DNA of 64,000 nt from Candidatus Culexmicrobium thermophilum (lineage in GTDB: Archaea; Thermoproteota; Methanomethylicia; Culexarchaeales; B10-G16): the NCBI GenBank assembly GCA_025061095.1, contig JANZKB010000001.1, positions 1,078-65,077 on the forward strand. The letters are read 5' to 3'. The notes beneath the pieces are model-generated. The model was not told the DNA's origin. It ran no database searches and saw only the letters and a program-made list of their open reading frames with translations. Each line of letters begins with the position of its first letter. Position 1 is the stretch's first letter. Of this stretch, positions 34,137-61,290 are shown piece after piece. Made by a program: the position numbers and the translations under genes.

Positions 34137-34611
34137 GTTCATTCTATATATCATATGGAAATTTTTTCCAGCATATGTTGCAAATGCTTCACCAGTACTC
34201 TTAATTAAGAAGGGAAAGCCGATAGATTTTAATAAAAAATTCATCGACGGCAAACCCATATTTGGTTCACATAAAACTGTAGAAGGATTTCTCACGGGAA
34301 CTGTTGTGGGAACTATCTTTGGATATCTGCAAGATATGAATAATCCTTTAAGAGGGGTTTCCTTATCTTTGGGAGCGATGATCGGTGATCTTCTAGGATC
34401 TTTCATAAAGAGGAGGATGGGAATAGAGAGTGGAAAGTCTGCACCAATCTTAGATCAAGTAGCGTTTATCATAGGGGCTGTAACATTTTCAAGTTTCTTC
34501 AGCCACTATAGTTTGATGGAAGCTGTAACGATAATTCTTGTAACCATACCAATACATATTGCAACAAATTTAATAGCATATCTTCTAAAAATAAAAGATG
34601 TACCTTGGTAA
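34102..34611 (+). CDS. carS: CDP-archaeol synthase-like membrane protein (UPF0290)
   Basis: ~165 aa polytopic protein with NASPVL...KT.EG motif. Confidence 0.5.
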   Translation: MLGEVYYMEAYKFILYIIWKFFPAYVANASPVLLIKKGKPIDFNKKFIDGKPIFGSHKTVEGFLTGTVVGTIFGYLQDMNNPLRGVSLSLGAMIGDLLGSFIKRRMGIESGKSAPILDQVAFIIGAVTFSSFFSHYSLMEAVTIILVTIPIHIATNLIAYLLKIKDVPW

Positions 34612-34612
34612 G

Positions 34613-35011
34613 TTATATCCATCCTATCTTTATAGCTAACAAATATTGTAGAAGAATGAATGAGAAGATGAAGAGGGCTACTCCAATTCCAAGAATGATG
34701 CTTGCATATTTTGGATCTGAGGATATTCTACTTCCACGCTCGGTAAGGAACAGTCCAAGTGTTCCTCCAAGAAGTAAAATTAATACAACTACGGATTCAA
34801 CGATCGTTTGATAATCGAGAAACGGCATTATGAAAGTGAATCTGGAACCCATAGGATAAGCCCATATTGAAGGTTCAACCATAGAATAAATGGAGCCCCC
34901 TGCAAAAAGTATAAAGAGTATAACGCCTATGATAGGGAAGAAGTTTTTAAGAAGAGAAGTTAAACTATGCAGTTTTGATAATATCTTGGAAAAGTACATG
35001 ATCGCCACCAC
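34613..35011 (-). CDS. small membrane protein
   Basis: 4 predicted TM helices. Confidence 0.4.
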   Translation of the reverse strand: MVAIMYFSKILSKLHSLTSLLKNFFPIIGVILFILFAGGSIYSMVEPSIWAYPMGSRFTFIMPFLDYQTIVESVVVLILLLGGTLGLFLTERGSRISSDPKYASIILGIGVALFIFSFILLQYLLAIKIGWI

Positions 35012-35065
35012 TTGTTAACAGAATGATATATGGCTTAATAACTATGTTCACGAAGAAAAATTAAA

Positions 35066-35842
35066 ATGTTACGATTTTCATTTCCAAGAAGGAGATGGAT
35101 GATGAACGATGTTGAGGCTATATGTGCCGGATATTTTTATAAAAGTAATTTTGGGTTCATAATTCCATCAAGATGGATTTCTCCTGAAAAGTGCATGGAA
35201 ATTCGTAAAATAGTAAATTTAACAGAAAAGATACTAAAGGAGATTATGAGAGTAAGCGGGGATTTCGGATTGAAGATTACTCCTTCAATAGGATGTATCA
35301 ATATAGCTGAAAGCAGGAGGCAGATAGCTTATCTCGCTATAGGGCAGGAATTGAAGGATAAAGAATGTATAATACCATCAATATACAATTATTTAAGCAT
35401 AATTGGATTGGAAAAACCATTAATAGATAATTTCTTTCTATATTATCATCCACCTATAAAAGTAATAGTGGATAACAATATTGTTCAGGTAGTTCCCAGA
35501 GATTGCACATTATTAAAGAAGGATAATTTAGATGTGAAGCCGCAGTTAAAGATAAACACATATAAAGTTGACTTGGAAACCATAAAGTTAATGGTGAGAG
35601 CCATAATAAGACAGTCACTATGGGAGAAGGCGATTTCAGCTCCCTCTGAGAAAGCGGTGGAATGGTATACTGAGGAGATTTTCAGGAGAATTCATGAAAA
35701 AGAGAAGAAGAGCATTATACTGAGAGTTGCAGAGATTAAGGAGATAATTTTGGAGAAGATGCAGAGCCTGATGAATAGGATAAGAGGAGAATTGAAGGAA
35801 GAGATTGATTTAATGGAAGAGTTAATGGATAAATTAGTGTGA
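35066..35842 (+). CDS. hypothetical protein
   Basis: 258-aa ORF with host codon usage. Confidence 0.4.
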   Translation: MLRFSFPRRRWMMNDVEAICAGYFYKSNFGFIIPSRWISPEKCMEIRKIVNLTEKILKEIMRVSGDFGLKITPSIGCINIAESRRQIAYLAIGQELKDKECIIPSIYNYLSIIGLEKPLIDNFFLYYHPPIKVIVDNNIVQVVPRDCTLLKKDNLDVKPQLKINTYKVDLETIKLMVRAIIRQSLWEKAISAPSEKAVEWYTEEIFRRIHEKEKKSIILRVAEIKEIILEKMQSLMNRIRGELKEEIDLMEELMDKLV

Positions 35843-35844
35843 AT

Positions 35845-36228
35845 TTATTTTTTCAGAGGTTGGGCGTAAATGGAATATATGTATAAGTCTCCATTGCATT
35901 TGGGGCATTGGCCAATCCTTTTAAATATGTAATCTCCTACTTTGAATTCTCTTTCCTCTTTGAAATTGCAGGAGGGATTGGAACATTTAACGACTGTGAT
36001 CGTCAGATGCCTTCCTAGCAGGCGAAGCTTCATGATTTTTCTATGCTGATATGATAAGTAAAATGAGAGGGAGAGGCAGACTAAACCCGAAATGAAATAA
36101 TCCATGGAGAATGCGTTGAAGTCGCCTACTCTTTGAAGTTCAAATAATCCCAAACTTAATAGAATTAATGAAAATAATGAGAGAATTACCGATAGGATGA
36201 GGAAAATATTGTTTTTAAGATTACTCAT
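35845..36228 (-). CDS. membrane-anchored Zn-ribbon protein
   Basis: N-terminal TM helices; CSNPSC...CPKC. Confidence 0.4.
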   Translation of the reverse strand: MSNLKNNIFLILSVILSLFSLILLSLGLFELQRVGDFNAFSMDYFISGLVCLSLSFYLSYQHRKIMKLRLLGRHLTITVVKCSNPSCNFKEEREFKVGDYIFKRIGQCPKCNGDLYIYSIYAQPLKK

Positions 36229-36239
36229 TTCATAGCCTC

Positions 36240-37382
36240 CTATTGGGAAATTCCAAGAGTATTACCTATACCAGCTACAATTACAGTTTCACCTTCATGA
36301 ACTCTCTCTTCAATAATTGCGAGAAGTTTGTTTAACGCTTTTTCAGAAGCCATAACTATATTTTTCTTAATGGTGTTAATGGCCTCCTCAAGGGACATTT
36401 TTATTGCAATTGCATCTAGAGGAATTTTATACTTTGTTGCAATCTCCTCTATCTTATATTTTTCAGCTCCAGGGCCGCCTATTGCAGCACCTATACCCTC
36501 AGCCACCCTTCCAGTTTCTTCTCCTTCAAGTTTCAATGCAGCATCTATCATTATAATGCGGCTTATATTTCCTCCATTTTCAGCTATTATTCTAGCTATC
36601 GCCTCCCCCGGTTTACCTACCTCTGCACCTGGACCTTTAGCTTTTAAAGCTATAATTCTCCTACCCTTATAATCGAACTCTGATGCTACGATTTTTTCAG
36701 CAATTTCCCTGTGAGGTTTTCCATAGATAAGCTTGGCTACAACTAATGCTCCAACACCGTCGCCGATAGGCTTGCCATTTGAAAATGCATCTACAGCATT
36801 GTAGAATGCTTCAGCATACTTCATGAGAAGAGGAAGGTTCATTTGAAGCTGCATTATAAATACCATGTTCTTCGTCTTCTTCCCCAGTAATAGTAAATGT
36901 CTTATCTCTCTGTAAAGGGTGTTGAGAACTATGACTGTTTCCAGTAAACCTTCCAGGTTGGGAAGATCTTCAGATGAGACGTTGGGTGCTATACGTTTAA
37001 TGAATGCTTCGATACGATTATCTCTAACATTTAATAGATGATCTAGTTTTTCTATGATTCCTCTAGGATCAAGATCGACGGGTTCAATTATGAAGAAATC
37101 GAGGAAATCTTCGATCATAGGTGACGGATCGAAATCTGGTTTGCCCAGCTCTTTTACACGTTTAATTGCCGTTTGCTTTGCACGTGACAATAGGAAGTTT
37201 AATCTTCTAAGAGCGTTCTCCGCATCTCTCAACCACATCCATATTTGGACACGCTGATTGAGAAAAGTTATCACAAATGCAAACACTAGAAAATATAGGA
37301 TATCTATTATTATTGAGTTGGAAGAATCACCAAATATTGAGAGAGTAGCATCTATGAACTCCACTTCAACGATAGCCTCCAA
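36240..37382 (-). CDS. conserved archaeal protein (DUF1512-like) with N-terminal membrane segment
   Basis: 380 aa; Gly-rich GIGAAIGGPGAEKY region. Confidence 0.4.
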   Translation of the reverse strand: MEAIVEVEFIDATLSIFGDSSNSIIIDILYFLVFAFVITFLNQRVQIWMWLRDAENALRRLNFLLSRAKQTAIKRVKELGKPDFDPSPMIEDFLDFFIIEPVDLDPRGIIEKLDHLLNVRDNRIEAFIKRIAPNVSSEDLPNLEGLLETVIVLNTLYREIRHLLLLGKKTKNMVFIMQLQMNLPLLMKYAEAFYNAVDAFSNGKPIGDGVGALVVAKLIYGKPHREIAEKIVASEFDYKGRRIIALKAKGPGAEVGKPGEAIARIIAENGGNISRIIMIDAALKLEGEETGRVAEGIGAAIGGPGAEKYKIEEIATKYKIPLDAIAIKMSLEEAINTIKKNIVMASEKALNKLLAIIEERVHEGETVIVAGIGNTLGISQ

Positions 37383-37462
37383 CCTGCATTAAAATATAGA
37401 GGATATTAATAAATTTGTTTGTCTCCTGAAAGAATTGTGGAAAATCGTTTTTGTAGTTTAAT

Positions 37463-37587
37463 GCACCGCCAGCACACCCCTTTCCCAGTGCCTCTCGGAC
37501 ACCAGTACTCGGAAGTGCGGCAGTAGGCTTAACTTCCGGGTTCGGAATGAGACCGGGTGTTTCCCTACTGCCTATGGCCGGCGGTGC
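37463..37587 (-). rRNA. 5S ribosomal RNA (stand-alone)
   Basis: reverse complement reads GCACCGCCGGCCATAGGC...CCGGTCTCATTCCGAACCCGGAAGTTAAGC...GCTGGCGGTGC with pairing termini (helix I). Confidence 0.85.
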
Positions 37588-37680
37588 ACAAATTTGAAAC
37601 GGTTAACCGGGTTAATAAATTTTGCTCAGTTAAACTTGAAGTTAAACTTATAAAGAAAAAGAGTAAGCTTTTTACATGGA

Positions 37681-37791
37681 GCCGGGGTCGCCTAGCCTGG
37701 CCCAGGGCGCCGGACTCATAATCAGAAAGGATTGAGGGGTTAAGAAAACGGTGAATTCCGGTTTCCGCGGGTTCGAATCCCGCCCCCGGCA
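37681..37791 (+). tRNA. tRNA-Met (CAT) with ~35-nt intron at/near the anticodon loop
   Basis: acceptor GCCGGGG/CCCCGGC, anticodon stem CCGGA/TCCGG separated by CTCATA+intron, T loop TTCGAAT. Confidence 0.75.
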
Positions 37792-37805
37792 CTACAGGTC
37801 GACTG

Positions 37806-38060
37806 TTACACCATTAATTTCAAGCCATATTTAACGAAAAGTGGAAGTAAAGTTATGGAGACTATGCTCACTAATTTTATAAGTATATATAAGCTTGGGC
37901 CAGCACTGTCTTTTAATGGATCTCCTACAGTATCTCCAATCACTGATGATGCATGAGCTGGTGTGTCTTTACCTCCAAGAAGACCAGATTCTATAAGTTT
38001 CTTCGCATTGTCCCATGCACCTCCAGCATTGAACATAAATGTTGCAAGAATTGCTCCCAC
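37806..38060 (-). pseudogene. C-terminal fragment of membrane H+/K+-translocating pyrophosphatase (HppA)
   Basis: GGAWDNAKK...[22 protein letters not shown] matches the last ~80 aa of V-PPases; the remaining ~600 aa are absent. Confidence 0.6.
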
Positions 38061-38230
38061 TCATTATCACTTTTCTCCTTAAAAGTTAGAGTGACATCAG
38101 CTATCAGCCTTGTCAGAGGCACAGTTGTTCTCGTATCTTCAGCCTTCAAGAAATCAATCAGCCAAGCCATGAAAACTTTACTATAAAATGCAACTCCAAC
38201 AGTAACATCTAATCTCTAAAGTCTTTTATT

Positions 38231-39358
38231 CTAATCCTCGACTCGATTGGAAACTTTGAAGATTGCCCTCTCACGATATCCTGTAACTACTCGATAGTAT
38301 CCACTTAACTCTTTATCCAAAATCTCTGATCCTGTATCGACCAATAATGTCCTTCTACTCAAAGATCTAAGTTTATTTCTTGTCGAGACGATGATGATAT
38401 TATCTTTACCCACTTCCCTAATAACCTTTGGACTGATCTGCTGATTTCCCCTCCCAAAAAGATATCCCTGCCCACCTATGGGGGTGACTATAATCTTTGC
38501 CTTCCGACCTCTTATCGTCTCGAGAATCTCTTTCTCATTTAAATCTTTTCCAACCAGCTTTTTCTTATGAATGATATCTACTCCGAGTAGGGAATAATCC
38601 AGATTTAGAAACTCCATTATCACTTTTGTTGTAGTTCCAGGTCCAATTATATAGTAGTATTCATCAGACATCTCATCTAGGATCTCCGCTGCAATCTCCT
38701 CTTTATTATATCTCTCGCTCATAGGTGTAGTTGACTTGCTGCCTGAGGTATATCCACGTTTAACCGGAATCTTAAGATATCCATATAACCTTGTGGATAG
38801 TTTGCCTCTCCTGAATAGTTCTTCATCAATATCCAACACCTCCGCATCAACAACCTCCCTAATTTCCCCCATCAAAAACAACCTTGCAAGTTCCCCTGCA
38901 ACAACTGGATTAACTGCGAAGACAGCTGAGAAAACTTTGACCCCGGCAGGTATTCCAAGTACAACGAGACTTCGATCAATGGCATCATAGATATCTCTAG
39001 CAGTTCCATCTCCACCAACAAAGAGGAGGAGATCAACTCCTAGCACTCTCATTTCATCTGCAGCCCTCTTAGTATCCTCCGCAGTGGTCTTCTCCCCCTT
39101 TAATTCTCCGATCACTTTAGGGGTGAAGGAGCAGCTGAGAGAGGCGTTCTCACCCATCTTTTTAGGGTAGGTTATCAATTCCACCCTATCCTTTAGAAGA
39201 AGAAGCTGTTTCAACGCTTCTTTCGCTCTATCTTCAGCCCAAGGCTTCGCACCCAATTTCAACGCCATCTTCAAGGTCTCTTCTCCATCTGTTCCTTTAA
39301 GGCCGACTCTACCGCCCATTCCAGCGATGGGATTAATGATCAACCCTAACTTCTTCAA
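38231..39358 (-). CDS. NAD-kinase/diacylglycerol-kinase-fold protein
   Basis: LGLIINPIAGMGG N-terminal motif, GGDGT motif. Confidence 0.5.
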   Translation of the reverse strand: MKKLGLIINPIAGMGGRVGLKGTDGEETLKMALKLGAKPWAEDRAKEALKQLLLLKDRVELITYPKKMGENASLSCSFTPKVIGELKGEKTTAEDTKRAADEMRVLGVDLLLFVGGDGTARDIYDAIDRSLVVLGIPAGVKVFSAVFAVNPVVAGELARLFLMGEIREVVDAEVLDIDEELFRRGKLSTRLYGYLKIPVKRGYTSGSKSTTPMSERYNKEEIAAEILDEMSDEYYYIIGPGTTTKVIMEFLNLDYSLLGVDIIHKKKLVGKDLNEKEILETIRGRKAKIIVTPIGGQGYLFGRGNQQISPKVIREVGKDNIIIVSTRNKLRSLSRRTLLVDTGSEILDKELSGYYRVVTGYRERAIFKVSNRVED

Positions 39359-39395
39359 TTAAGATCCTCCAACGGCATATAGGAGGGATATATGA

Positions 39396-40961
39396 TTATT
39401 CCCACTTTTCACGCTTCTTCAGATATGCCCGCCAAGTAATCGCCCACCTCTCAGGATCTTCTAGGAACTCAGGGCGGATCTTATGGATTGGGCAATTGTG
39501 AGGAGCATTCTTAAGCTTCTCCGGCGTTTCATAAGCCTCTTCCACAACTCTCTTCAACGTTTCAAGATACTTGTCCAAGTCATCCTTCGAGTATGATTCT
39601 GTAGGTTCTATGGTGAATGGTTCTGGAATTATCCATGGATGATGGCTTGTCCAGAGATGGAAGCCGAAATCAGCCATTCTCCTTATAACGTCCTCTGATG
39701 TTATTCCAGTATCCTCCCTGAGCTTTTCAAAGCTATATCTCACTTGTTCAATACGTTGCTTCGTCTTTGGGAAGGAGATACTCGCACATTTCACCTCACT
39801 CAGAATCCTCTTCATAACATAATTATTATTTAACACCGCCACCCTCGCAACCTCCCTTATCCCCTCAGCTCCAAGACTCATTATCCAAGAATAAGCCCTT
39901 AGGATTACTGGAAAGACACCGTAGAACTCTCTAACCTTCCCAATGGAGTGTGACAGATCATAATTCAAATAATACTTTTCACCATTATACTCTACAATTG
40001 GAATTGGCAGAAAATCCACCAACCTATCTGTCACCCCCACAGCACCAACTGCAGGTCCACCACACCCATGAGGAGACGAGAACGTCTTATGCAAGTTAAA
40101 GAAGCCTAAATCGAAGCCGCAGTCCACCGCTCTAATAATTCCCAAAAGTCCATTTGCATTGGCCTGATCATATGCACACAATCCCCCCACACCATGCACA
40201 ATCTTTGTGAACTCCTTAATCCTTGGATTGAAGATCCCTGTATCCTCAGGATTCGTCACAATAAAGCCTGCTGTACGTTCAGAAACAGCTTTCTCCAATG
40301 CTTCAACATCAACCAATCCAGACTCGTTCGGATAGAGACTTATTACGCGATAACCCTTCACAGCTGGAGCAGCTGCATTGGATGGATGAGATAGCAATGT
40401 AGTTATGATCTCATCTCTCTTCTCCCCCTCACCTCTGAGCTCATGATATTTATGTATAATCGAGATTATGGTGAAGATGGCATGTGAGCCACCGCCGGGC
40501 TGAAATGTAAATCTGCTGAATCCGGAGAGCTCCCTCAAAAATAGATCCAGCTTATACATTATCTCAAGTGCACCTTGAATAGTATCCACATCTTGGAGTG
40601 GATGAAGTTCAGTGACCTTCGGAGAATTTGCTAAGAGATCATTTATTATGGGATTATACTTCATTGTACATGTTCCCTGGCCGATATCGATATTGAGGGT
40701 TGCACCCAAAGTCTCTTGAGATAGACGGAGATAATGCCTCAATACCCGTACCTGTGAGATCTCTGGAAGTCTAGGAGGATCCCTACGAATCATATGTTCA
40801 GGTAGGACTGAGACTCCGTCACCAACAAGCTCCTCAATCTCCTTCTCAACCTCTGGAACAATTATGCCACGCTCACCCTTCCTACTCAACTCAAAGATTA
40901 TCGGTTCACTCCATCTAGCCTCATGAAAATTTCTCAACTTGAAATCTCCTTTCCTCATCAT
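39396..40961 (-). CDS. gcvPB: glycine dehydrogenase (decarboxylating) subunit 2
   Basis: PLP-fold with NLHKTFSSPHGCGGP motif. Confidence 0.8.
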   Translation of the reverse strand: MMRKGDFKLRNFHEARWSEPIIFELSRKGERGIIVPEVEKEIEELVGDGVSVLPEHMIRRDPPRLPEISQVRVLRHYLRLSQETLGATLNIDIGQGTCTMKYNPIINDLLANSPKVTELHPLQDVDTIQGALEIMYKLDLFLRELSGFSRFTFQPGGGSHAIFTIISIIHKYHELRGEGEKRDEIITTLLSHPSNAAAPAVKGYRVISLYPNESGLVDVEALEKAVSERTAGFIVTNPEDTGIFNPRIKEFTKIVHGVGGLCAYDQANANGLLGIIRAVDCGFDLGFFNLHKTFSSPHGCGGPAVGAVGVTDRLVDFLPIPIVEYNGEKYYLNYDLSHSIGKVREFYGVFPVILRAYSWIMSLGAEGIREVARVAVLNNNYVMKRILSEVKCASISFPKTKQRIEQVRYSFEKLREDTGITSEDVIRRMADFGFHLWTSHHPWIIPEPFTIEPTESYSKDDLDKYLETLKRVVEEAYETPEKLKNAPHNCPIHKIRPEFLEDPERWAITWRAYLKKREKWE

Positions 40962-42379
40962 TTCGCTATGCCTCCCTCAATAATCTTCTTCAATGCATGG
41001 GCTAGGCGATCCAAACTCTCCTTCGTATGAAGCTCAGTAACACAGTATAAGGCGCTGGCACCTAACTCAGGAAATTTATCGGTGAGATCGATTCCACCGA
41101 AGATATTATAACTTAGCAGATTCCTGTTAATCTCATCAACCGAGAGAGAGGTGCCGTTGAAATCAACCACAAACTCTTTGAAATGTGGTGCTTTAAATCG
41201 CGGGGCTACAACACCTGGAATCTCGGATAAGAGTTTCATGGCATATTGAGATCTCTGCATTATCGTCTTACCAAGCATCTGCATACCATAAGGACCCATG
41301 AGAGAGAGATAGACTCCAGCGGTAATTCCCCATAATGCTGCAGCAGTGCCCACAAACTCCTTCGCCTTCTCCCGCCTCTCAAAGGAGGTCCTCTCAAATG
41401 CTACATCACCGAAACCATACTCACCATCAACAATGGTCTTAGTAATCCCGAAGAGACGTGAAGGATACTCCATCACAAACTTCTCCTCATCAGGAGTAGC
41501 GATGAAACCAGCTAAACCACCACCGAAATTCATATGAATCCCTAGAGGTTGAAGCTCACCGCAGACGATATCAGCATCATAACGACTGGGGGGAACGATT
41601 ACACCGAGAGAGATCGGATCAACACCAACAACAATCAGAGCATCAAACCTGTGGAGAGCATCGGATATCTCAGCGCCATGAGTCTCAATCGGACCAAGGT
41701 AAGATGGATTCTCAAAGTAGACTGCAGCAGTCTCCTCCGAGATCTTAGAATTTAAGTCATCCAAATCCATCATACCGGTCTCAGGATCATGCTTAACCAA
41801 CAAGATCTTCACAACAGGCTCACAATAATTTCTTATAATTGCAAGTCTCTCAGGGGAGATCGTGTCAGATATCAAAACTTCATCCCGCTTCGTGATCCTG
41901 CATGCCATTCTAATGGAGGTGGCGGCAGCCTGACCCCAACTATATGTTGGAACGTTAACAACATCCATCTCCACAAGTTCAGCGACCAAACTCTGATATT
42001 CGAAGAGAGCCTGCCACCTACCATGATCCTCCCACGGCTCACCGGCATATGCAGTCAAGAACTCCGATCTCCGATTGATCTCATCGCATATAGCAGGTAC
42101 ATAATGCTGCCAACATCCACCACCAAGAAAACTAACATAATCATCACACTCCCTATTTTTAGAGAGGATACCCTCAACATGACGCTTCAAATCTGCTTCA
42201 GACTGCAAGGGATCAGGCAGATTTAACACACCCTTAAACTTAAGCTCATCAGGGATGCTTGAGTAGAGTTGATCCATGCTCTCCACGCCTATCTCCCTCA
42301 GCATCTCTTTCTGGATATATGGAGAGGAGTTTGGGATATATGGATGAGCGCACTTCCTTTTAGACCTTTCATTCAACAT
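40958..42379 (-). CDS. gcvPA: glycine dehydrogenase (decarboxylating) subunit 1
   Basis: HPYIPNS N-terminal motif after internal Met; ATGA overlap with gcvPB. Confidence 0.75.
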   Translation of the reverse strand: MLNERSKRKCAHPYIPNSSPYIQKEMLREIGVESMDQLYSSIPDELKFKGVLNLPDPLQSEADLKRHVEGILSKNRECDDYVSFLGGGCWQHYVPAICDEINRRSEFLTAYAGEPWEDHGRWQALFEYQSLVAELVEMDVVNVPTYSWGQAAATSIRMACRITKRDEVLISDTISPERLAIIRNYCEPVVKILLVKHDPETGMMDLDDLNSKISEETAAVYFENPSYLGPIETHGAEISDALHRFDALIVVGVDPISLGVIVPPSRYDADIVCGELQPLGIHMNFGGGLAGFIATPDEEKFVMEYPSRLFGITKTIVDGEYGFGDVAFERTSFERREKAKEFVGTAAALWGITAGVYLSLMGPYGMQMLGKTIMQRSQYAMKLLSEIPGVVAPRFKAPHFKEFVVDFNGTSLSVDEINRNLLSYNIFGGIDLTDKFPELGASALYCVTELHTKESLDRLAHALKKIIEGGIAK

Positions 42380-42398
42380 ATGAATCAACCTCCTAAGA

Positions 42399-43154
42399 TC
42401 AAGCCAACCCTCCACCATCAACAACCAGGATCGCCCCTGTAACCCAACTTGAGAGATCACTCGCAAGGTAAAGAACCGCATTGGCAATGTCTTCAGGCTT
42501 CCCCACACGCTTAATCGGCCTATCAGCAGCCTCCTCCAAAAACTTATTTAAATCAACACCTAACTGACGGGCCTCACTTCGAAGAAGAGGCGTATCTACA
42601 TCTCCAGGACAGATACAGTTAACTCGAATCCCCTCCCTACCATGATCGATAGCCATAGCACGGGTAAGGTTGACAACCCCACCTTTAGAAGCACAGTAGG
42701 CTGCAGCTTTCGGACCGCCCTTTAATCCCCAACCGGAACCAATATTTATGATACAGCCGCCGCCACCCCTAACCATATAGGGAATGAAATGATGGGATGT
42801 AAGATAGATACCTTTAAGATTCACATCTAAGACTAGATCCCACTCCTCCTCACTCATCTCAACGACATTCTTCCTTACGATAACACCAGCACTATTTACA
42901 AGGATATCGATCCTCCCAAAATTTTCATAAACCCTCTCAGCCACCCTCTTACACTGAAGATTCGAAGTAATATCACAACGATAAAATCTCGCATCCACAC
43001 CAACCTCTTCAACTATCTTCAAAGCTTTTCTTCCCCCCTCCTCATCTATATCCAATAGGGCTATGTTCGCACCAGCCTCAGCCAGACGCTTAGCAACACC
43101 CAACCCTATCCCAGAAGCAGCACCAGTAACCACCGCAACCTTCCCATTTAACAT
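42399..43154 (-). CDS. short-chain dehydrogenase/reductase (SDR)
   Basis: GKVAVVTGAASGIG Rossmann motif, YxxxK. Confidence 0.75.
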   Translation of the reverse strand: MLNGKVAVVTGAASGIGLGVAKRLAEAGANIALLDIDEEGGRKALKIVEEVGVDARFYRCDITSNLQCKRVAERVYENFGRIDILVNSAGVIVRKNVVEMSEEEWDLVLDVNLKGIYLTSHHFIPYMVRGGGGCIINIGSGWGLKGGPKAAAYCASKGGVVNLTRAMAIDHGREGIRVNCICPGDVDTPLLRSEARQLGVDLNKFLEEAADRPIKRVGKPEDIANAVLYLASDLSSWVTGAILVVDGGGLA

Positions 43155-43442
43155 TACATGTTTCAATATCTCCTCAGAAACCATAAAATCACACTCCAAG
43201 ATTATATAAAGCTTAAAAGTTAATAACAATTAGTTTAATAATCCCTCAATATCAAATGATAGTGAATGAAGTGAAAGAAATGAAGATAATGATTATACAT
43301 GCTGAGAAGATGTGGTGGAAGATGATAAAACCTGTTAGAATGCCCTTAAAAGATGAAATCAACTCTAAGAATAAAAGAGACATAATACTTGCAGAATTAT
43401 TACGCTAGCATTTCCACCAAAATAAAAAATAGGCCTAACCGC

Positions 43443-43660
43443 TTATTTCGCTCCCCTTTTCAGTCACTTCTTCGGTTAGCGAATCGGTGACCGAAACTGG
43501 TTTTCGCTCACTTTTGGGTAGGAACAAGATTTTTGTTTCTGTCGCCCCGCTTACTTTTCGCTCACCTTCTCGCTCGGTTTCGGTCTCAATTTCGGTCTAT
43601 TTTCGGTCCCCTTTTCGCTCCCCTTTCAGCCCCCGCTCAGTCAATTTTTCGCTCATCTAG
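43443..43660. repeat. degenerate tandem array (8-9 copies) of a TTTTCG(C/G)TC(A/C)C unit plus an inverted repeat TTCGGT-N13-ACCGAA containing GGTGACC
   Basis: direct reading: ...atttcgctcccctttt...ttttcgctcactttt...cttttcgctcaccttctcgctcggtttcggtctcaatttcggtctattttcggtccccttttcgctcccc...tttttcgctcatc. Confidence 0.7.
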
Positions 43661-43756
43661 AAATATTAATAGAAGAATATAAACTTGGAAAAGCATCATC
43701 ATAAACAAAAAAGAGTAAACATTAGAAGATAAACCATAAAGAAAATAATAAAAAAG

Positions 43757-44109
43757 ATGAAGCCCCCCAAACCAGGTGGCGCATATAATCAAGCGGTGGA
43801 ATTTAATGGTCTCATCTTTGTCTCAGGACAACTGGCCAGAGATAAAGATGGAGGAGAGATAATTGAAGGCGACATAACAGCTCAAACAAAGAAGGTAATT
43901 CAAAACATAGAGAAGATACTTAAAGTAGCCGACAGCAGTTTAGATAACATACTGATGTCATTTGTATTCCTAAGAGAGAAAAGACTATTCGATAAATTCA
44001 ACGAAGAGTATAAGAAAAACTTCAAAAGGAATTACCAGCAAGAGTAACAGTCGGAGTAGAACTGGCTCCCAATGCATTGGTAGAAATCGCGGTCATAGCA
44101 CACAAATAG
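43757..44109 (+). pseudogene. ridA: RidA/YjgF-family deaminase gene with a 1-nt frameshift in an A-run
   Basis: frame 0 encodes PKPGGAYNQAVEFNGLIFVSGQ...; the C-terminal ...LPARVTVGVELAPNALVEIAVIA continues in another frame after 'aaaaacttcaaaagg'. Confidence 0.65.
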
Positions 44110-44413
44110 ATTAACAAAATAATGAAAAACAACAACCATTTCGCGGCTAGAATCGTAGAAAATAGAAGCATGAGTATAGCACTGAAAAAGCAGACGAAGA
44201 ACTTGAAGTAGCAATATGCATTAAAAACTCCGTTCCAGTATTGATAGCCGTAGCCACATCATTACCACATGGGATAGATGAACAGATATGAAGCTCAAGA
44301 TCTCTTCAGGATCCCCTCAAATGTAAACCTCTTGTCTAAAAATGTTCATGCCCTGAGAGAATGTAAAAAGTACAAATTATTTAACAATAGTAGTTTAAAA
44401 TATAAAACACGTA

Positions 44414-45424
44414 TTGTTAAGAGATTCTGTGGAGGGTGTGTTGGTGGTTAATTATTTTTTGGTTGCTGTTTCTAATAGGGAGAATTTGGGTTTGTGTTTG
44501 GATTTTGGTATGGCTGGTTTTCCTGGCAGTGTGAATGGTGTTTGGGCTTTTTGTGATGTTGAGGTTGGTGATTTTGTTTCTTTTCTTTACGCTGCTCATA
44601 TTTATAATCTTTATAGGGTTAGTGATAAGATGGCTATTTTGAGGGCTGAGGAGGCTCCTCCCTGGAAGCCTCTTGAGTTTAGGTCTGGTAGGGTTTATTA
44701 TTTTCCTTTTCGTTTGTTGCTTGAGCCTGTTCGTTGGTTTAGGGAGTCTTTGGTTCGTGCTGAGTTTGCCTATGTTGCTGAGAATTTATTGTTGCGTGGT
44801 GGTTATGCTAAGACTCATTTTCAGGCTGATCAGACGACTCTTCAGTGCGCATCTCAGTTAGGTGAGCTTGTTGAAAATTATTTGTTTAAGAGTGTTGACC
44901 TGAAGAAATATGGTGTTTTTACTCCGAAGTTTTCTCTGGATAAGAGTAGGGTGAATATGGTGGATGTCTATCCACTTAGGGAAATGATTTTACAGGCTTT
45001 GATAAGGAAGTATTTAAGTCAAGAAAATAATCTTGCCAGATTCCTAGAACTTATGGAAATTTCAGAAACTCAACCAAGATACTTGGAAGTATTGGGCGAG
45101 AAAGCTTTACCCGAAGGGCATGTAGATATTTTAATTAAGGAACGAACACCAATAGGCAAAGCAAAACTCATAATAATAGAAGTTAAAAGTGGCAGAGCTT
45201 ACCTAAGAGATCTAAAACAGCTTGAAAAATATAGAGCAGAGATCGGATCAGAATGTATTGGGGCATGCTTAATAGCAAAAGATTTTCCACGAAAAATAAT
45301 CAAATCTGAAAACAATATTAAACTACTCAAATATAATTTAGATATCATGAAAAATGAAGCCTACACCTTAAATCAACTACTCAAATCACTAACACTAATA
45401 AAAACAACAAAGCTAAAGCTATAA
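44414..45424 (+). CDS. PUA-like (EVE-type) domain fused to Mrr/NucS-like PD-(D/E)xK nuclease; predicted modification-dependent restriction endonuclease
   Basis: N-terminal ...VEVGDFVSFLYAAHIYNLYRV (EVE-like GD..FYxS strand pattern); C-terminal GHVDILIKE...LIIIEVKSGRAYLRDLKQLEKY (D...E-x-K); 5' ~570 nt uses NNT codons unlike host, 3' part host-like. Confidence 0.5.
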   Translation: MLRDSVEGVLVVNYFLVAVSNRENLGLCLDFGMAGFPGSVNGVWAFCDVEVGDFVSFLYAAHIYNLYRVSDKMAILRAEEAPPWKPLEFRSGRVYYFPFRLLLEPVRWFRESLVRAEFAYVAENLLLRGGYAKTHFQADQTTLQCASQLGELVENYLFKSVDLKKYGVFTPKFSLDKSRVNMVDVYPLREMILQALIRKYLSQENNLARFLELMEISETQPRYLEVLGEKALPEGHVDILIKERTPIGKAKLIIIEVKSGRAYLRDLKQLEKYRAEIGSECIGACLIAKDFPRKIIKSENNIKLLKYNLDIMKNEAYTLNQLLKSLTLIKTTKLKL

Positions 45425-45550
45425 ACAACATTACATACTATATTATCCATAAGAAGTTTGTTTAATGCTTCCCTCAAGTAAGCCATGGTTATGATATTGT
45501 AGATTAATTTAATCACCGCTAAAAAATTAAGGATCAGCAATATTAAATAG

Positions 45551-45853
45551 AGTAGTTTCCTTCATCTTCAAAATTGTCAGCTAGGAGGAATAACATATAA
45601 AAGATATTGGTGTATAGTTACGTCACCTGAAAACTGGGAAATATGTAAAAGAAATAATGTTTGGGGGATGAATGCAAGATATTATGTAACTCTTCAAAAA
45701 TTTCTGAAAACAGGAGGCCAAGCGGTAGTATATACTCATGGTGGAAAATTTGTCGCGGTTATGGAATTCATAGGTAACTGGTTCTATGAAGAAAAGGATA
45801 TAGGATGGACTAAAGGTAAAAGAATTTTTATTTCCGTACAGAATAAAGTTTAA
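45551..45853 (+). CDS. stand-alone EVE/PUA-like domain protein; no canonical start until ATG 45668 (possible pseudogene)
   Basis: in-frame translation from 45551: ...RYWCIVTSPENWEICKRNNVWGMNARYYVTLQKFLKTGGQAVVYTHGGKFVAVMEF...W...IFISV matches the EVE pattern; a GGAGG Shine-Dalgarno-like motif lies upstream but no ATG/GTG/TTG in frame. Confidence 0.45.
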   Translation, partial: SSFLHLQNCQLGGITYKRYWCIVTSPENWEICKRNNVWGMNARYYVTLQKFLKTGGQAVVYTHGGKFVAVMEFIGNWFYEEKDIGWTKGKRIFISVQNKV

Positions 45854-46265
45854 AATCCTTCATGAAGCTAAAACCTGTTAAAATATCTTATTCTATTGTA
45901 GAGGAAGGAAGTAAAGCAAAATGGATCAATCCTAATTTCATTGATGATATTACTTTTATTGCAGATAAAAGGAAAAACATGGAATCAGTATTTACAAGTT
46001 TCAATTATTAGAATAATGAAAGAGGATTTTGACACAATATGTGAAGCGATTAAAAGGAATTGACAAAAATATGCTTGCCAATGATATACTGAATAATCCA
46101 TATTGTGCATTAGTTTATTATTTTGATTACTTTGTTTAGTGTTTCTGCTTTGATGATGGATGCGCTGAGGCTGAAGATCTCTTCCCTTGTTATTATCATG
46201 TTGGGTGTGACTTCTTTAAATATTGAGGCTTTGATGTAGTAGCTCTTTTGATGCTTCTGTTCCTT

Positions 46266-46799
46266 CTAATTCTCTAATAGCTTTAAAATTCGTTCTCCAA
46301 GTTTTTGAGCTTCCTTCAGTGCTTCTTCATCTTTTAGGATGTCGCCTTTTTCGAATGCGTATCCTAGAATGCCTGGAATTTTAGTCATTTTCAATCTTGA
46401 TAGATATTCTTCTATTTCACCTATTGTGGAACCTATTTTTCTTCTTCCAACAACAATGTATGTGCCGATTTTTCCTTCGAGCTGCCCCTTTCTGAGGAAC
46501 CATGTTCTTTCCATGAAAGCTCGAAGCCTGGATGTTACACCTCCCATGTATGAAGGGCTGGACAGGATTATGACGTCGGCTTCTTTGAGCTTGGGGTATA
46601 GCTTTTGCATATCATCCTCTATAACGCATTGGTTGTTCTCCTCACAGTAATGACATCCCTCACAGGGCTTAATGTTATAATCCTTTAGAAAAATAATTTC
46701 TGTCTCATATTTTTTCTTAAGAATCTTCATAACTTCCTCAAGCAATTGTGCAGTGTTTCCATTCTTATGCGGAGAACCAATAATTCCAATAGCTTTCAT
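46266..46799 (-). CDS. NADPH-dependent FMN reductase / iron-sulfur flavoprotein (Isf-like)
   Basis: flavodoxin-like fold GIIGSPHKNGNT; CEGCHYC Cys motif. Confidence 0.6.
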   Translation of the reverse strand: MKAIGIIGSPHKNGNTAQLLEEVMKILKKKYETEIIFLKDYNIKPCEGCHYCEENNQCVIEDDMQKLYPKLKEADVIILSSPSYMGGVTSRLRAFMERTWFLRKGQLEGKIGTYIVVGRRKIGSTIGEIEEYLSRLKMTKIPGILGYAFEKGDILKDEEALKEAQKLGERILKLLEN

Positions 46800-46804
46800 A
46801 ACCT

Positions 46805-47560
46805 TTACTCCCTCATTTGGTTGATTATATGGAAACGGATACCGATGTAGAGAAACAAAGACAAATAGAGAACAAGAATTCCCACATTAACTAAAGGATG
46901 GAAAGTAGTCGTCTCTCCAAGCCCTTTCCTAAGCAATTCTATAGTATGAGTAAGGGGAGAGAAGAATGATATAATCTGTGCCCAAGACGGCAGATCCTTA
47001 ATTGGAATAAAGATACCGCTGATAAAGAGCAGGGGCAATCTGACAAAGTTCAGAGGCATCATAACTTGACCGGGATTCTGACCGGGGATTGAGGCAAACA
47101 TTATCCCCATGGTGGCAAAACAGAGGGCTGAGAGAACCATTCCAGCCAACAATGCTGCAAAATCACTTATTAGAGAATTGAAAAAGAAGAATCCGACGAT
47201 TATTGGGATGATGGAGATCAATAAACCATAAAGAAAGCCTGCAAACGTCTTGCCTAAAAGTACAGTAATAAGAGAAACGGGAGCAGCAAAAAATCGATCA
47301 AAAGTCTTAATTCTCCGCTCAAGAGGGATGGTTACAGGTCCAATAGTGGAAGAGGCGAAGAATAGCGTCTGAGCAACGAGAATTGGAATTGCACTATGGA
47401 CAGAGATCTTCCGACCTATCACAAAAGATAGAAACAAGGAGCAGGGAAAAAGAATACCAAAAACCAAGGAAGGAAACTTAACATAATAGATACGTATATC
47501 CTTCTCACTAATTGCCAAAGCAACACGAATCTCCCTTAAGAGACGCTTAGAAGTTATCAA
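46805..47560 (-). CDS. ABC-2 family transporter permease
   Basis: 6 TM segments; overlaps ATPase gene by 4 nt. Confidence 0.65.
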   Translation of the reverse strand: MITSKRLLREIRVALAISEKDIRIYYVKFPSLVFGILFPCSLFLSFVIGRKISVHSAIPILVAQTLFFASSTIGPVTIPLERRIKTFDRFFAAPVSLITVLLGKTFAGFLYGLLISIIPIIVGFFFFNSLISDFAALLAGMVLSALCFATMGIMFASIPGQNPGQVMMPLNFVRLPLLFISGIFIPIKDLPSWAQIISFFSPLTHTIELLRKGLGETTTFHPLVNVGILVLYLSLFLYIGIRFHIINQMRE

Positions 47561-48585
47561 GACTTCACCCCCTTATTACGTCCCATATCCCGCTTCTTCC
47601 TCTTCCAAGCAGATCCACCTTCAGACCTCTCAGACACCTCAGGTTCAACGCCTGTAAGCTCCAAGAACACGTCAGTTAAACTCGGTCCTAAAGTATTCAA
47701 AGTAATTATCTTCAAATTATTAGCTTTAACATAATCCCAGAGAGCAGAAAGCAGAGCAGAAGGTTCCTCAGTATATAATTTATATTTATCACCATACTTT
47801 ACAACACGAGTAACCGTTGGAAGCTTATTGAGATCACTTAGCAAACCATTAACCTCACGATAGAATGAGACCTCAACAGACTGAAGCCTCTTTGCGGTAC
47901 GCTTCAACCTCTCGGGAGTATCGATGGCCACTATCTTCCCCCTATTAATTATAGCCACTCTATCACACATCTGGTTCGCCTCCTCCAAATTATGAGTAGT
48001 AAGAAAGATCGTCAACCCCTCTTCATTCAACTTGCGAATCAAATTTCTTATCGTCAAAACACTCTGAACATCAAGACCAGAAGTAGGCTCATCCAAAAAT
48101 AAAACGGAAGAATCATTCATAAGAGCCATAGCTATACAGAGACGCCGCTTCATCCCTCTCGAGAAATTCTCAACCTTTACATTACGCTTATCATAAAGAT
48201 TAAATAACTTCAAGAGCTCCTCAGCCTTCCTCTCCCTTTCAGGCTTAGGAATGTCATAAAGCTTACCGATAAAAATCAAATTATCCCATGCAGACAACTC
48301 AGTATAAACATTCGAGATATCCGTAACTATACCAATCAATTCCTTAGCCTCTACAGACTGACGCTGAATATCAAAACCCATAATCTTCGCATAACCCTCA
48401 CTGGGCCTTGAAATACCCGTCAACATCCGAACCGTCGTCGTCTTCCCAGCACCATTAGGCCCAAGAAAACCAAAGATCTCCCCACACTTAACCTCAAAAC
48501 ATATATGATCAACAGCAAGAAGATCCCCATAATACTTCGTAAGATTAACCGCCTCAATAGCAGGCTCCGCAGAAATTCGACTCAT
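47557..48585 (-). CDS. ABC transporter ATP-binding protein
   Basis: Walker A GPNGAGKTT, signature LSRGMKRRL, Walker B LFLDEPT. Confidence 0.85.
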   Translation of the reverse strand: MSRISAEPAIEAVNLTKYYGDLLAVDHICFEVKCGEIFGFLGPNGAGKTTTVRMLTGISRPSEGYAKIMGFDIQRQSVEAKELIGIVTDISNVYTELSAWDNLIFIGKLYDIPKPERERKAEELLKLFNLYDKRNVKVENFSRGMKRRLCIAMALMNDSSVLFLDEPTSGLDVQSVLTIRNLIRKLNEEGLTIFLTTHNLEEANQMCDRVAIINRGKIVAIDTPERLKRTAKRLQSVEVSFYREVNGLLSDLNKLPTVTRVVKYGDKYKLYTEEPSALLSALWDYVKANNLKIITLNTLGPSLTDVFLELTGVEPEVSERSEGGSAWKRKKRDMGRNKGVKS

Positions 48586-48793
48586 AAATTTAATGCCTCC
48601 AATAAAAAGAAATAAATCATTATTTAACTAAATGGGCAAAAATATATTATTTTTGCCCATTCACCAAACCAACAACCGAAAAATTACAAAAATCAATCAA
48701 AACCGACAAAATTGACCATTATCACAGAACTAACCATAACAGGATCTATAAGAATAGAAGATAAGCAACTAGAGGAATTTTGAGGAATATACG

Positions 48794-60479: not shown

Positions 60480-61290
60480 AATTAGAAAGGGTGACAACTT
60501 GATTTATGATAAATACGGGGAATATTATGACCTAGTATACAGCGCGAAAAATCATGATGATGAATATGAAAGTCTCATTAGTTACTTCAAGAGGTTTTGA
60601 AAAACAAGACTAAAAGTATACTCGATGTTGAATGTAGAACTGGTAATCATAGTATACGTTTTGGTTTCTTAAAGTGGCTATAATGTAGTCGGCGTTGACT
60701 TATCCGAAGTTATGATAAATCAAGCTAAAAGAAAAGGTGAGGGGAGAAACTTGCCTGTCAAATTCTTTGTCCAAGACATGGGGAAACTCAGCCTAAAAAG
60801 AAATTTGACGCAGTTTTATGCCTTTTCGGAACATTTGATTACTGTACACGTGACGAAGAGATTCTTAAAACCTTTAAAAAATGGGGAATCATTTGAAAAA
60901 AGACGATTTATTCATCTTTGATTTCTTCCCCCTTCACGCATATGTCGGAAGAGAAAGCCACTGAAGCATTCACGAAGTAGAAAATAAAATATACATCTTG
61001 AGAATAATCGATACTTCCCTTAATCTCGAAACGAATATAGTAGAATTCAAAATAAAATGTAAGGTCATAAAGAACGGAGGTCTCAAGATTCATCGACCGT
61101 TTTGAGGAAGAACATAAAATAAGAATATTCACACCACCGGAAATAGCACATCTATTGAAAGAAACAGGTTTTAAGCCTTTAGGCTTCTTTAATGTTAATT
61201 GGCAAGCCGAAAGACCCTACAGCCTAGACAGCATTACCCTTCAAACCACTAACATAGCATGCGTAGCTAAAAATTTGGGGAAATAGAACA
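60480..61290 (+). pseudogene. decayed class I SAM-dependent methyltransferase gene (multiple frameshifts/stops)
   Basis: pieces across frames: YDKYGEYYDLVY..., ILDVECRTGNHSIRF (motif I GxGxG changed to ECRTG), VVGVDLSEVMINQAKRKGEG, LFIFDFF. Confidence 0.55.

Follow-up and report, generated by a model that had tools for sequence, protein, structure and literature searches.

The segment at positions 45597-46063 very probably represents a stand-alone EVE-domain gene (UPF0310 type) that has become a genuine pseudogene, fixed in this lineage. Positions are those of the window, by which we mean the whole 64,000-nucleotide stretch of DNA analysed. It is a gene in ordinary decay, and its readings as a gene that uses an unusual start or as one half of a defence module with two sensors do not hold.

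The initial annotation of the locus covered only the frame that opens after a TAG stop and runs uninterrupted from 45551 to a TAA at 45851-45853, giving a 100-aa translation. The earliest in-frame ATG, GTG or TTG is the ATG at 45668, from which an ORF listing gives 61 aa. The frame had been described as a stand-alone ORF that has no start codon and is preceded by a GGAGG motif, and all of this is confirmed in the sequence. Its assignment as EVE/PUA-like also held in a profile search of the 100-aa translation, which matched the Pfam EVE family PF01878 narrowly above threshold (E=4.1e-05, 24.1 bits with a cut-off of 23, profile positions 1-75 of 145). Three-frame translation revealed a point that the initial annotation had missed, namely that the gene extends past 45853. 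The domain continues in frame 2, which reads EFLFPYRIKFKILHEAK, and then in frame 3, which reads (M)KLKPVKISYSIVEEGSKAKWINPNFIDDITFIADKRK and includes ..KPVKISYS...FIADK. Frame 1 resumes with TWNQYLQVSIIRIMKEDFDTICEAIKRN and ends at a TGA at 46061-46063. The features of the locus are as follows.

45548-45550, forward strand: preceding stop codon TAG.
45584-45588, forward strand: GGAGG, resembling a ribosome-binding site and also present in the intact orthologue L001.
45597-46063, forward strand: whole pseudogene of a ~156-codon stand-alone EVE (UPF0310-type) gene, delimited by the repaired translation, profiles and homologues.
45597-45599, forward strand: start-codon remnant; L001 has CACATGAAAAG and the window CATAT-AAAAG, the G of the ATG being deleted between 45598 and 45599.
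45599-45822, forward strand: frame-1 remnant, residues 2-76, the portion in the initial annotation; the frame runs on to the false stop at 45851-45853.
45823-45824, forward strand: site of a 2-bp deletion in an A-run; the orthologue has GAGAAAATTTTT and the window AG--AATTTTT, with a shift to frame 2.
45825-45869, forward strand: frame-2 remnant FLFPYRIKFKILHEA, containing the invariant FPYR motif.
45870-45873, forward strand: site of a second 2-bp deletion in an A-run; the orthologue has GCTAAAAAACCT and the window GCT--AAAACCT, with a shift to frame 3.
45874-45969, forward strand: frame-3 remnant PVKISYSIVEEGSKAKWINPNFIDDITFIADK.
45967-45970, forward strand: A-run with a 1-bp insertion; the orthologue has GAT-AAAGG and the window GATAAAAGG, with a return to frame 1.
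45971-46063, forward strand: frame-1 C-terminal remnant GKTWNQYLQVSIIRIMKEDFDTICEAIKRN and the true stop TGA at 46061-46063.

The protein stitched together from these frames matches PF01878 over positions 1-144 of 145 (E=2e-07) and the NCBIfam family PRK00809 (UPF0310) over positions 3-146 of 146 (E=2.9e-14). Its matches in the PDB are 2P5D (MJECL36, E=2.8e-11) and 1WMM (PH1033, E=5.7e-09). A search with the repaired gene found 265 homologues, the best with E=9.5e-80 and 80% identity, and nearly all of those listed are ~152-184 aa long. These homologues provide far stronger evidence for an EVE domain than the Pfam match of the 100-aa translation. Intact homologues of 155-157 aa align with the repaired protein from end to end at 66-92% identity. 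The gene thus resembles the archaeal UPF0310 solo EVE proteins (PH1033, structures 1WMM, 2HD9 and 2ZBN; MJECL36, structure 2P5D) in having a single domain of ~150 aa with an end-to-end profile match, and it shares with them the N-terminal Y-W-x-I/C motif, the VWG tryptophan and the FPYR motif. It differs from them in that the window copy is a pseudogene, and in that the stitched protein scores only 53 bits with PRK00809, far under the cut-off of 139, which marks the window subfamily as a distinct branch. Among the full-length matches listed, members of this subfamily are 62-80% identical to the repaired query and come from both archaeal and bacterial phyla.

The lesions were defined by comparison with L001, a 909-bp contig whose gene region shares ~90% DNA identity with the window. 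Its ORF is intact, opens with ATG AAA AGA TAT TGG and encodes a ~156-aa protein beginning MKRYWCI. The database entry for this protein, P0009, has 132 aa, is 91-92% identical to the repaired protein and starts at an internal methionine; because an intact in-frame ATG lies 24 codons upstream on L001, its length reflects a gene-call truncation. A few 132-aa homologue entries begin at an internal methionine, P0009 being the one checked. Four indels separate the window from L001: loss of the start-codon G, deletion of 2 bp at 45823, deletion of 2 bp at 45870 and insertion of 1 bp at 45967-45970. They explain the frame order 1, 2, 3, 1 exactly, and repairing them yields a 156-aa protein that aligns with that of L001 without gaps. 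The DNA alignment places all three frameshifting indels in A-runs. With the four indels no full-length protein can be made. The suggestion in the initial annotation that the copy is possibly decaying is therefore borne out by the lost start-codon G and the three frameshifts. Further gene remnants in the window, of a RidA gene, an H+-PPase and a methyltransferase, also support a pseudogene.

The missing parts bear on the predicted ligand site. In MJECL36 the aromatic cage consists of W25, F79 and F90 (PMC6112328). By sequence alignment, the likely counterparts are W23 in the VWG motif, the tryptophan of DIGW and the phenylalanine of FPYR, the last aligning with F90 of MJECL36. Both tryptophans are encoded in frame 1, and the FPYR phenylalanine, which lies beyond the first frameshift, can be read only in another frame. 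The intact protein would form a PUA-like β-barrel with an aromatic cage made of these three residues and would recognise a modified base flipped out of DNA or RNA. Binding of m6A to MJECL36 was undetectable (PMC6112328), and our literature search for functional studies of UPF0310, PH1033 and MJECL36 found none beyond this negative result.

We considered whether the locus could still be a functional short gene, starting at a non-canonical codon such as the ATA at 45596 or at the ATG at 45668 and producing an 85-aa or 61-aa N-terminal EVE fragment. The GGAGG has been kept and 100 codons are open, which leaves room for a truncated product, and frame 1 passes the Pfam EVE threshold by itself. However, the ancestral start was a normal ATG, which L001 carries exactly where the window misses one G; the deletion destroyed it, and this together with the three frameshifts removes the case for the non-canonical start proposed in the initial annotation. 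The frame-1 ORF ends before FPYR and does not include the most conserved C-terminal motif, the invariant FIADKGKTWNQYLQVSI, so that any product would be an incomplete barrel; the longest possible products are without both the FPYR cage residue and this motif, and the last β-strands are missing as well. Fragments of this size are also at odds with the lengths of the listed homologues, and two substitutions in the window copy, D26N and D41G, alter invariant residues. A functional short gene is therefore very unlikely.

There is likewise only a slim chance that the gene is truly intact and that the indels are homopolymer errors of sequencing or assembly. The position of the three frameshifts in A-runs would fit such errors, as would the neighbouring RidA gene, which is likewise frameshifted within an A-rich stretch. 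However, the lesions recur in other assemblies. A 52.5-kb contig from a different ENA assembly (L029) is 99.66% identical to window positions 34430-48702, with 27 substitutions and several indels; across 44509-48521 it is identical to the window and so carries all four lesions, and its gene calls at the EVE locus are fragments of 61 and 49 aa, as in the window. A separate 2,744-bp contig from a GTDB genome (L016) is 100% identical to window positions 43545-46288 and has the same four lesions. That the three assemblies are independent is judged from the SNPs by which L029 differs from the window. Moreover, homopolymer length errors do not typically produce 2-bp deletions, of which there are two here, or the loss of a G, and contig names of the forms k141_... 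and NODE_..._cov_... point to short-read assembly. The window copy is also substituted at invariant residues, and the rest of the window is largely intact, with 83% under long ORFs. We take the lesions to be real and to have become fixed in this lineage. The initial annotation had proposed that an intact start in related genomes would make the locus a sequencing artefact; relatives do carry an intact start, but this criterion fails because a second assembly, from a slightly different strain, shows the same lesions. Programmed recoding or phase variation, in which slippage on the A-runs that form the frameshift sites would restore the frame or toggle the gene, was rejected as having next to no probability: translation would have to get past three shifts of mixed sign as well as a lost start codon, L001 and other intact homologues have their A-runs in frame and hence offer no conserved recoding signal, and the disrupted copies of other genomes are broken elsewhere, nonsense codons included.

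As to when the pseudogene arose, comparison of the window copy with L001 gave a dN/dS of 0.11 at a dS of 0.34, indicating constraint on the gene for most of its history. When substitutions were polarised with three outgroup genes, 8 nonsynonymous and 6 synonymous changes fell on the window branch and 3 and 13, respectively, on the L001 branch, a trend only (Fisher p=0.057). The columns of D26N and D41G hold aspartate in 121/121 homologues, and further rare residues in the window copy result from S8V, I56M and T142M. At columns conserved to at least 90%, the window copy deviates three times and the median homologue twice, so the copy is no outlier. The pattern would be consistent with a gene that was inactivated fairly recently and has since undergone some neutral drift, with the statistics being weak.

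Loss of the solo-EVE gene is not confined to this lineage. Scanning one genome per species gave 23 loci, 22 of which could be assessed. The gene is disrupted in 6 of the 22, the window lineage (as L016) included, or in 5 of the 21 other species, about a quarter; loss of the gene is therefore common. Frameshifts disrupt the copies at L021 and L025. The copy at L022 has nonsense codons at K19 and K85 and a truncation, that at L026 has nonsense codons, including W5 and L37, together with frameshifts, and that at L027 combines nonsense codons, including W23, with frameshifts. Each of these five copies is broken at different positions. A further candidate, L024, was rejected as a disrupted copy, its apparent in-frame stop being the natural stop at residue 154.

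The genomic contexts of the subfamily vary. In a Methanocellales MAG (L011, 9163-10462) an intact EVE gene follows a TdeIII-family restriction enzyme gene at a distance of 56 bp, and in a Hadarchaeota MAG (L010, 3879-5989) one is flanked by the genes for an MvaI/BcnI-family restriction enzyme on one side and an N6/N4 DNA methylase on the other. These two loci suggest a recurrent association of the solo-EVE gene with type II restriction-modification systems. Other intact copies adjoin a UvrD helicase (L015, L018, L019), follow cas3-cas4-cas1-cas2 (L033), sit with MNT/HepT and HicB toxin-antitoxin genes that are inserted into a cobalamin operon (L002), or have a Y-family polymerase and a UDG nearby (L030); at L022, where the copy is disrupted, it adjoins a DUF559 protein. 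A conserved neighbour was sought by clustering ORFs within ±4 kb at 29 loci and by comparing the immediate upstream and downstream ORFs at 34 loci. Neighbours were shared only between close relatives, which argues that there is no operon partner.

Archaeal stand-alone EVE proteins often accompany restriction systems (PMC7641849), and the contexts found here agree with that association. The subfamily resembles the 'fast-evolving' stand-alone EVE class of Bell, Wolf and Koonin (2020, PMC7641849) in that its members adjoin restriction enzymes, cas genes and toxin-antitoxin genes, and the window copy in that it adjoins a predicted modification-dependent nuclease. It differs in that no single partner is conserved, that the published partners, namely the COG1743-DUF499-SWI2/SNF2 nuclease operon and type I RM, were not seen here, and that its sequence is strongly conserved in contrast to the name of that class. 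Taken together, the solo-EVE gene may behave as a horizontally mobile single-gene cassette that often settles beside restriction enzymes and is often lost again, and it would have been inactivated in this lineage fairly recently.

The gene upstream of the pseudogene is intact.

44444-45424, forward strand: intact neighbouring nuclease gene, encoding 326 aa from its likely start and 336 aa from the TTG at 44414.

This gene probably starts at 44444, giving 326 aa as in the homologue P0121. Its homologues number 1166, are about 324 aa long and come from Bathyarchaeia, Dehalococcoidia and other groups. The sole Pfam match of the protein is a weak, sub-threshold one to NucS_C; a Pfam search of the 336-aa protein gave no EVE match even at E<=1, and a PADLOC scan of the nuclease and EVE proteins gave no matches. 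An AF2 model built with 30 homologues has a pLDDT of 91.7 and a pTM of 0.89. Its top Foldseek matches in the PDB are PH1033 and MJECL36, followed by MspJI, AspBHI, YTH domains and EndoMS/NucS. D228, E246 and K248, which form a D...ExK motif, are invariant in the 30 homologues, and an invariant central motif, AENLLLRGGY..THFQ.DQTTLQ, lies between the reader and nuclease domains. The model, the Foldseek matches and the alignment thus indicate that 44444-45424 encodes a PUA-like reader joined to a nuclease whose catalytic motif is intact. The initial annotation had read the gene as an EVE-like domain fused to a nuclease, with which the model and Foldseek agree, and 'EVE-nuclease' is a fair description of the predicted protein.

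Like MspJI, AspBHI and the EVE-HNH enzyme VcaM4I, which are modification-dependent restriction enzymes that combine a PUA-superfamily domain with a nuclease, the neighbour is predicted to have an N-terminal EVE/YTH-like reader and a C-terminal PD-(D/E)xK nuclease with the invariant D...ExK. MspJI and AspBHI match its model over the whole length, but with low TM-score and high rmsd. It differs from the three enzymes in that its nuclease domain is NucS/EndoMS-like and in that the central motif is unique to it. A modification-dependent nuclease would be the most likely function of the 326-aa protein, and its family is probably an undescribed family of modification-dependent restriction enzymes.

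The nuclease ORF (44444-45421) also contains an abrupt switch in codon usage. Third positions in its N-terminal half are A 0.03, C 0.04, G 0.29 and T 0.64; the share of A starts at 0.00 for three sliding windows, and in the C-terminal half it is about 0.48 overall and as high as 0.58. The same switch is found in the closest distinct relative (L038, 326-1303, 83.7% identical) and is absent from L035-L037, which are distant homologues. Elsewhere in the window, too, genes split into GT3-rich and A3-rich classes.

The initial annotation had joined the two genes as tandem paralogs resembling duplicated sensor modules. The likeness of the EVE copy to the N-terminal domain of the nuclease holds at the level of fold, as shown by Foldseek, and fails at the level of sequence: hhalign gave a probability of 2.8% with 19% identity over 96 columns, and recent paralogy of the two reader domains was rejected. 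The adjacency is not conserved either. No member of the nuclease family was found within 10 kb of any other solo-EVE locus, and no EVE gene was found on L038, a 4.8-kb contig carrying the closest distinct relative of the nuclease (83.7% nucleotide identity). Three more distant nuclease homologues (L035-L037) lie in unrelated contexts, with no EVE listed among the genes called within ±6 kb of them. The adjacency of EVE and nuclease genes is unique to this lineage. Homology with L038 is confined to 44391-45428 and homology with L001 to 45563-46092, and these separate limits suggest that the two genes arrived separately. Functionally, the EVE gene would be unconnected to the intact, EVE-like nuclease gene that lies 175 bp upstream of it. 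An imperfect 19-nt direct repeat (44289-44307 and 46166-46184, 17/19 matches) brackets the two genes; by a rough estimate, about 0.2 matches of this kind would be expected by chance. The repeats were rejected as the boundary of a mobile cassette, since the homology with L038 and L001 ends elsewhere.

Several other degenerate elements were observed in the window.

43757-44109, forward strand: RidA/L-PSP pseudogene, whose frame 1 ends at 44047 (...KRNYQQE, then a stop).
About 60480-61290, forward strand: heavily decayed class I SAM-methyltransferase-like pseudogene, recognised by eye.
About 37806-38060, reverse strand: 84-aa fragment with a Pfam H_PPase match in the gene table of L029.
43446-43654: degenerate short tandem array upstream of the RidA remnant, with units like TTTCGCTCCCCTTTTC spaced by 11-23 nt.

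The conserved C-terminus of RidA, KELPARVTVGVELAPNALVEIAVIAHK followed by a stop, is read in a different frame, and the shift falls within A-rich sequence near 44012-44035. The shift is common to L029, which has an extra 1-bp deletion at 43763. The tandem array differs in length between the window and L029 by indels totalling 13 bases at 43615-43634. The methyltransferase-like fragments occupy three frames (..ILDVECRTGNHSI.., ..GYNVVGVDLSEVMINQAKRKG.., ..FDAVLCLFGTFDY.., ..KETGFKPLGFF..). The H_PPase fragment is probably the remnant of a ~700-aa H+-pyrophosphatase; the gap that holds it also contains a 5S rRNA (37464-37585) and an Rfam tRNA match (37681-37791), which at 111 nt is long enough for an intron.

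The locus is properly annotated as a pseudogene at 45597-46063; calling it a 61-aa ORF, or a gene that starts at an exotic codon, would be wrong. As a decayed copy of a known domain family it has little importance in itself. The value of its context is modest: it belongs to a solo-EVE subfamily that is unusually conserved across domains, turns over fast and often has restriction enzymes adjacent to it. A broader reading, which we put forward tentatively and consider possible but doubtful as a whole, is that the subfamily is a horizontally mobile, single-gene 'plug-in' reader of modified bases that joins unrelated restriction nucleases (TdeIII-like, MvaI/BcnI plus methylase, DUF559 and the uncharacterised EVE-NucS-like nuclease) and is quickly gained and lost. 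The window would then represent a decayed stage of this process, and the neighbouring family would be a new type IV restriction enzyme. In any case, the intact upstream gene flags a large unannotated family of putative modification-dependent nucleases.
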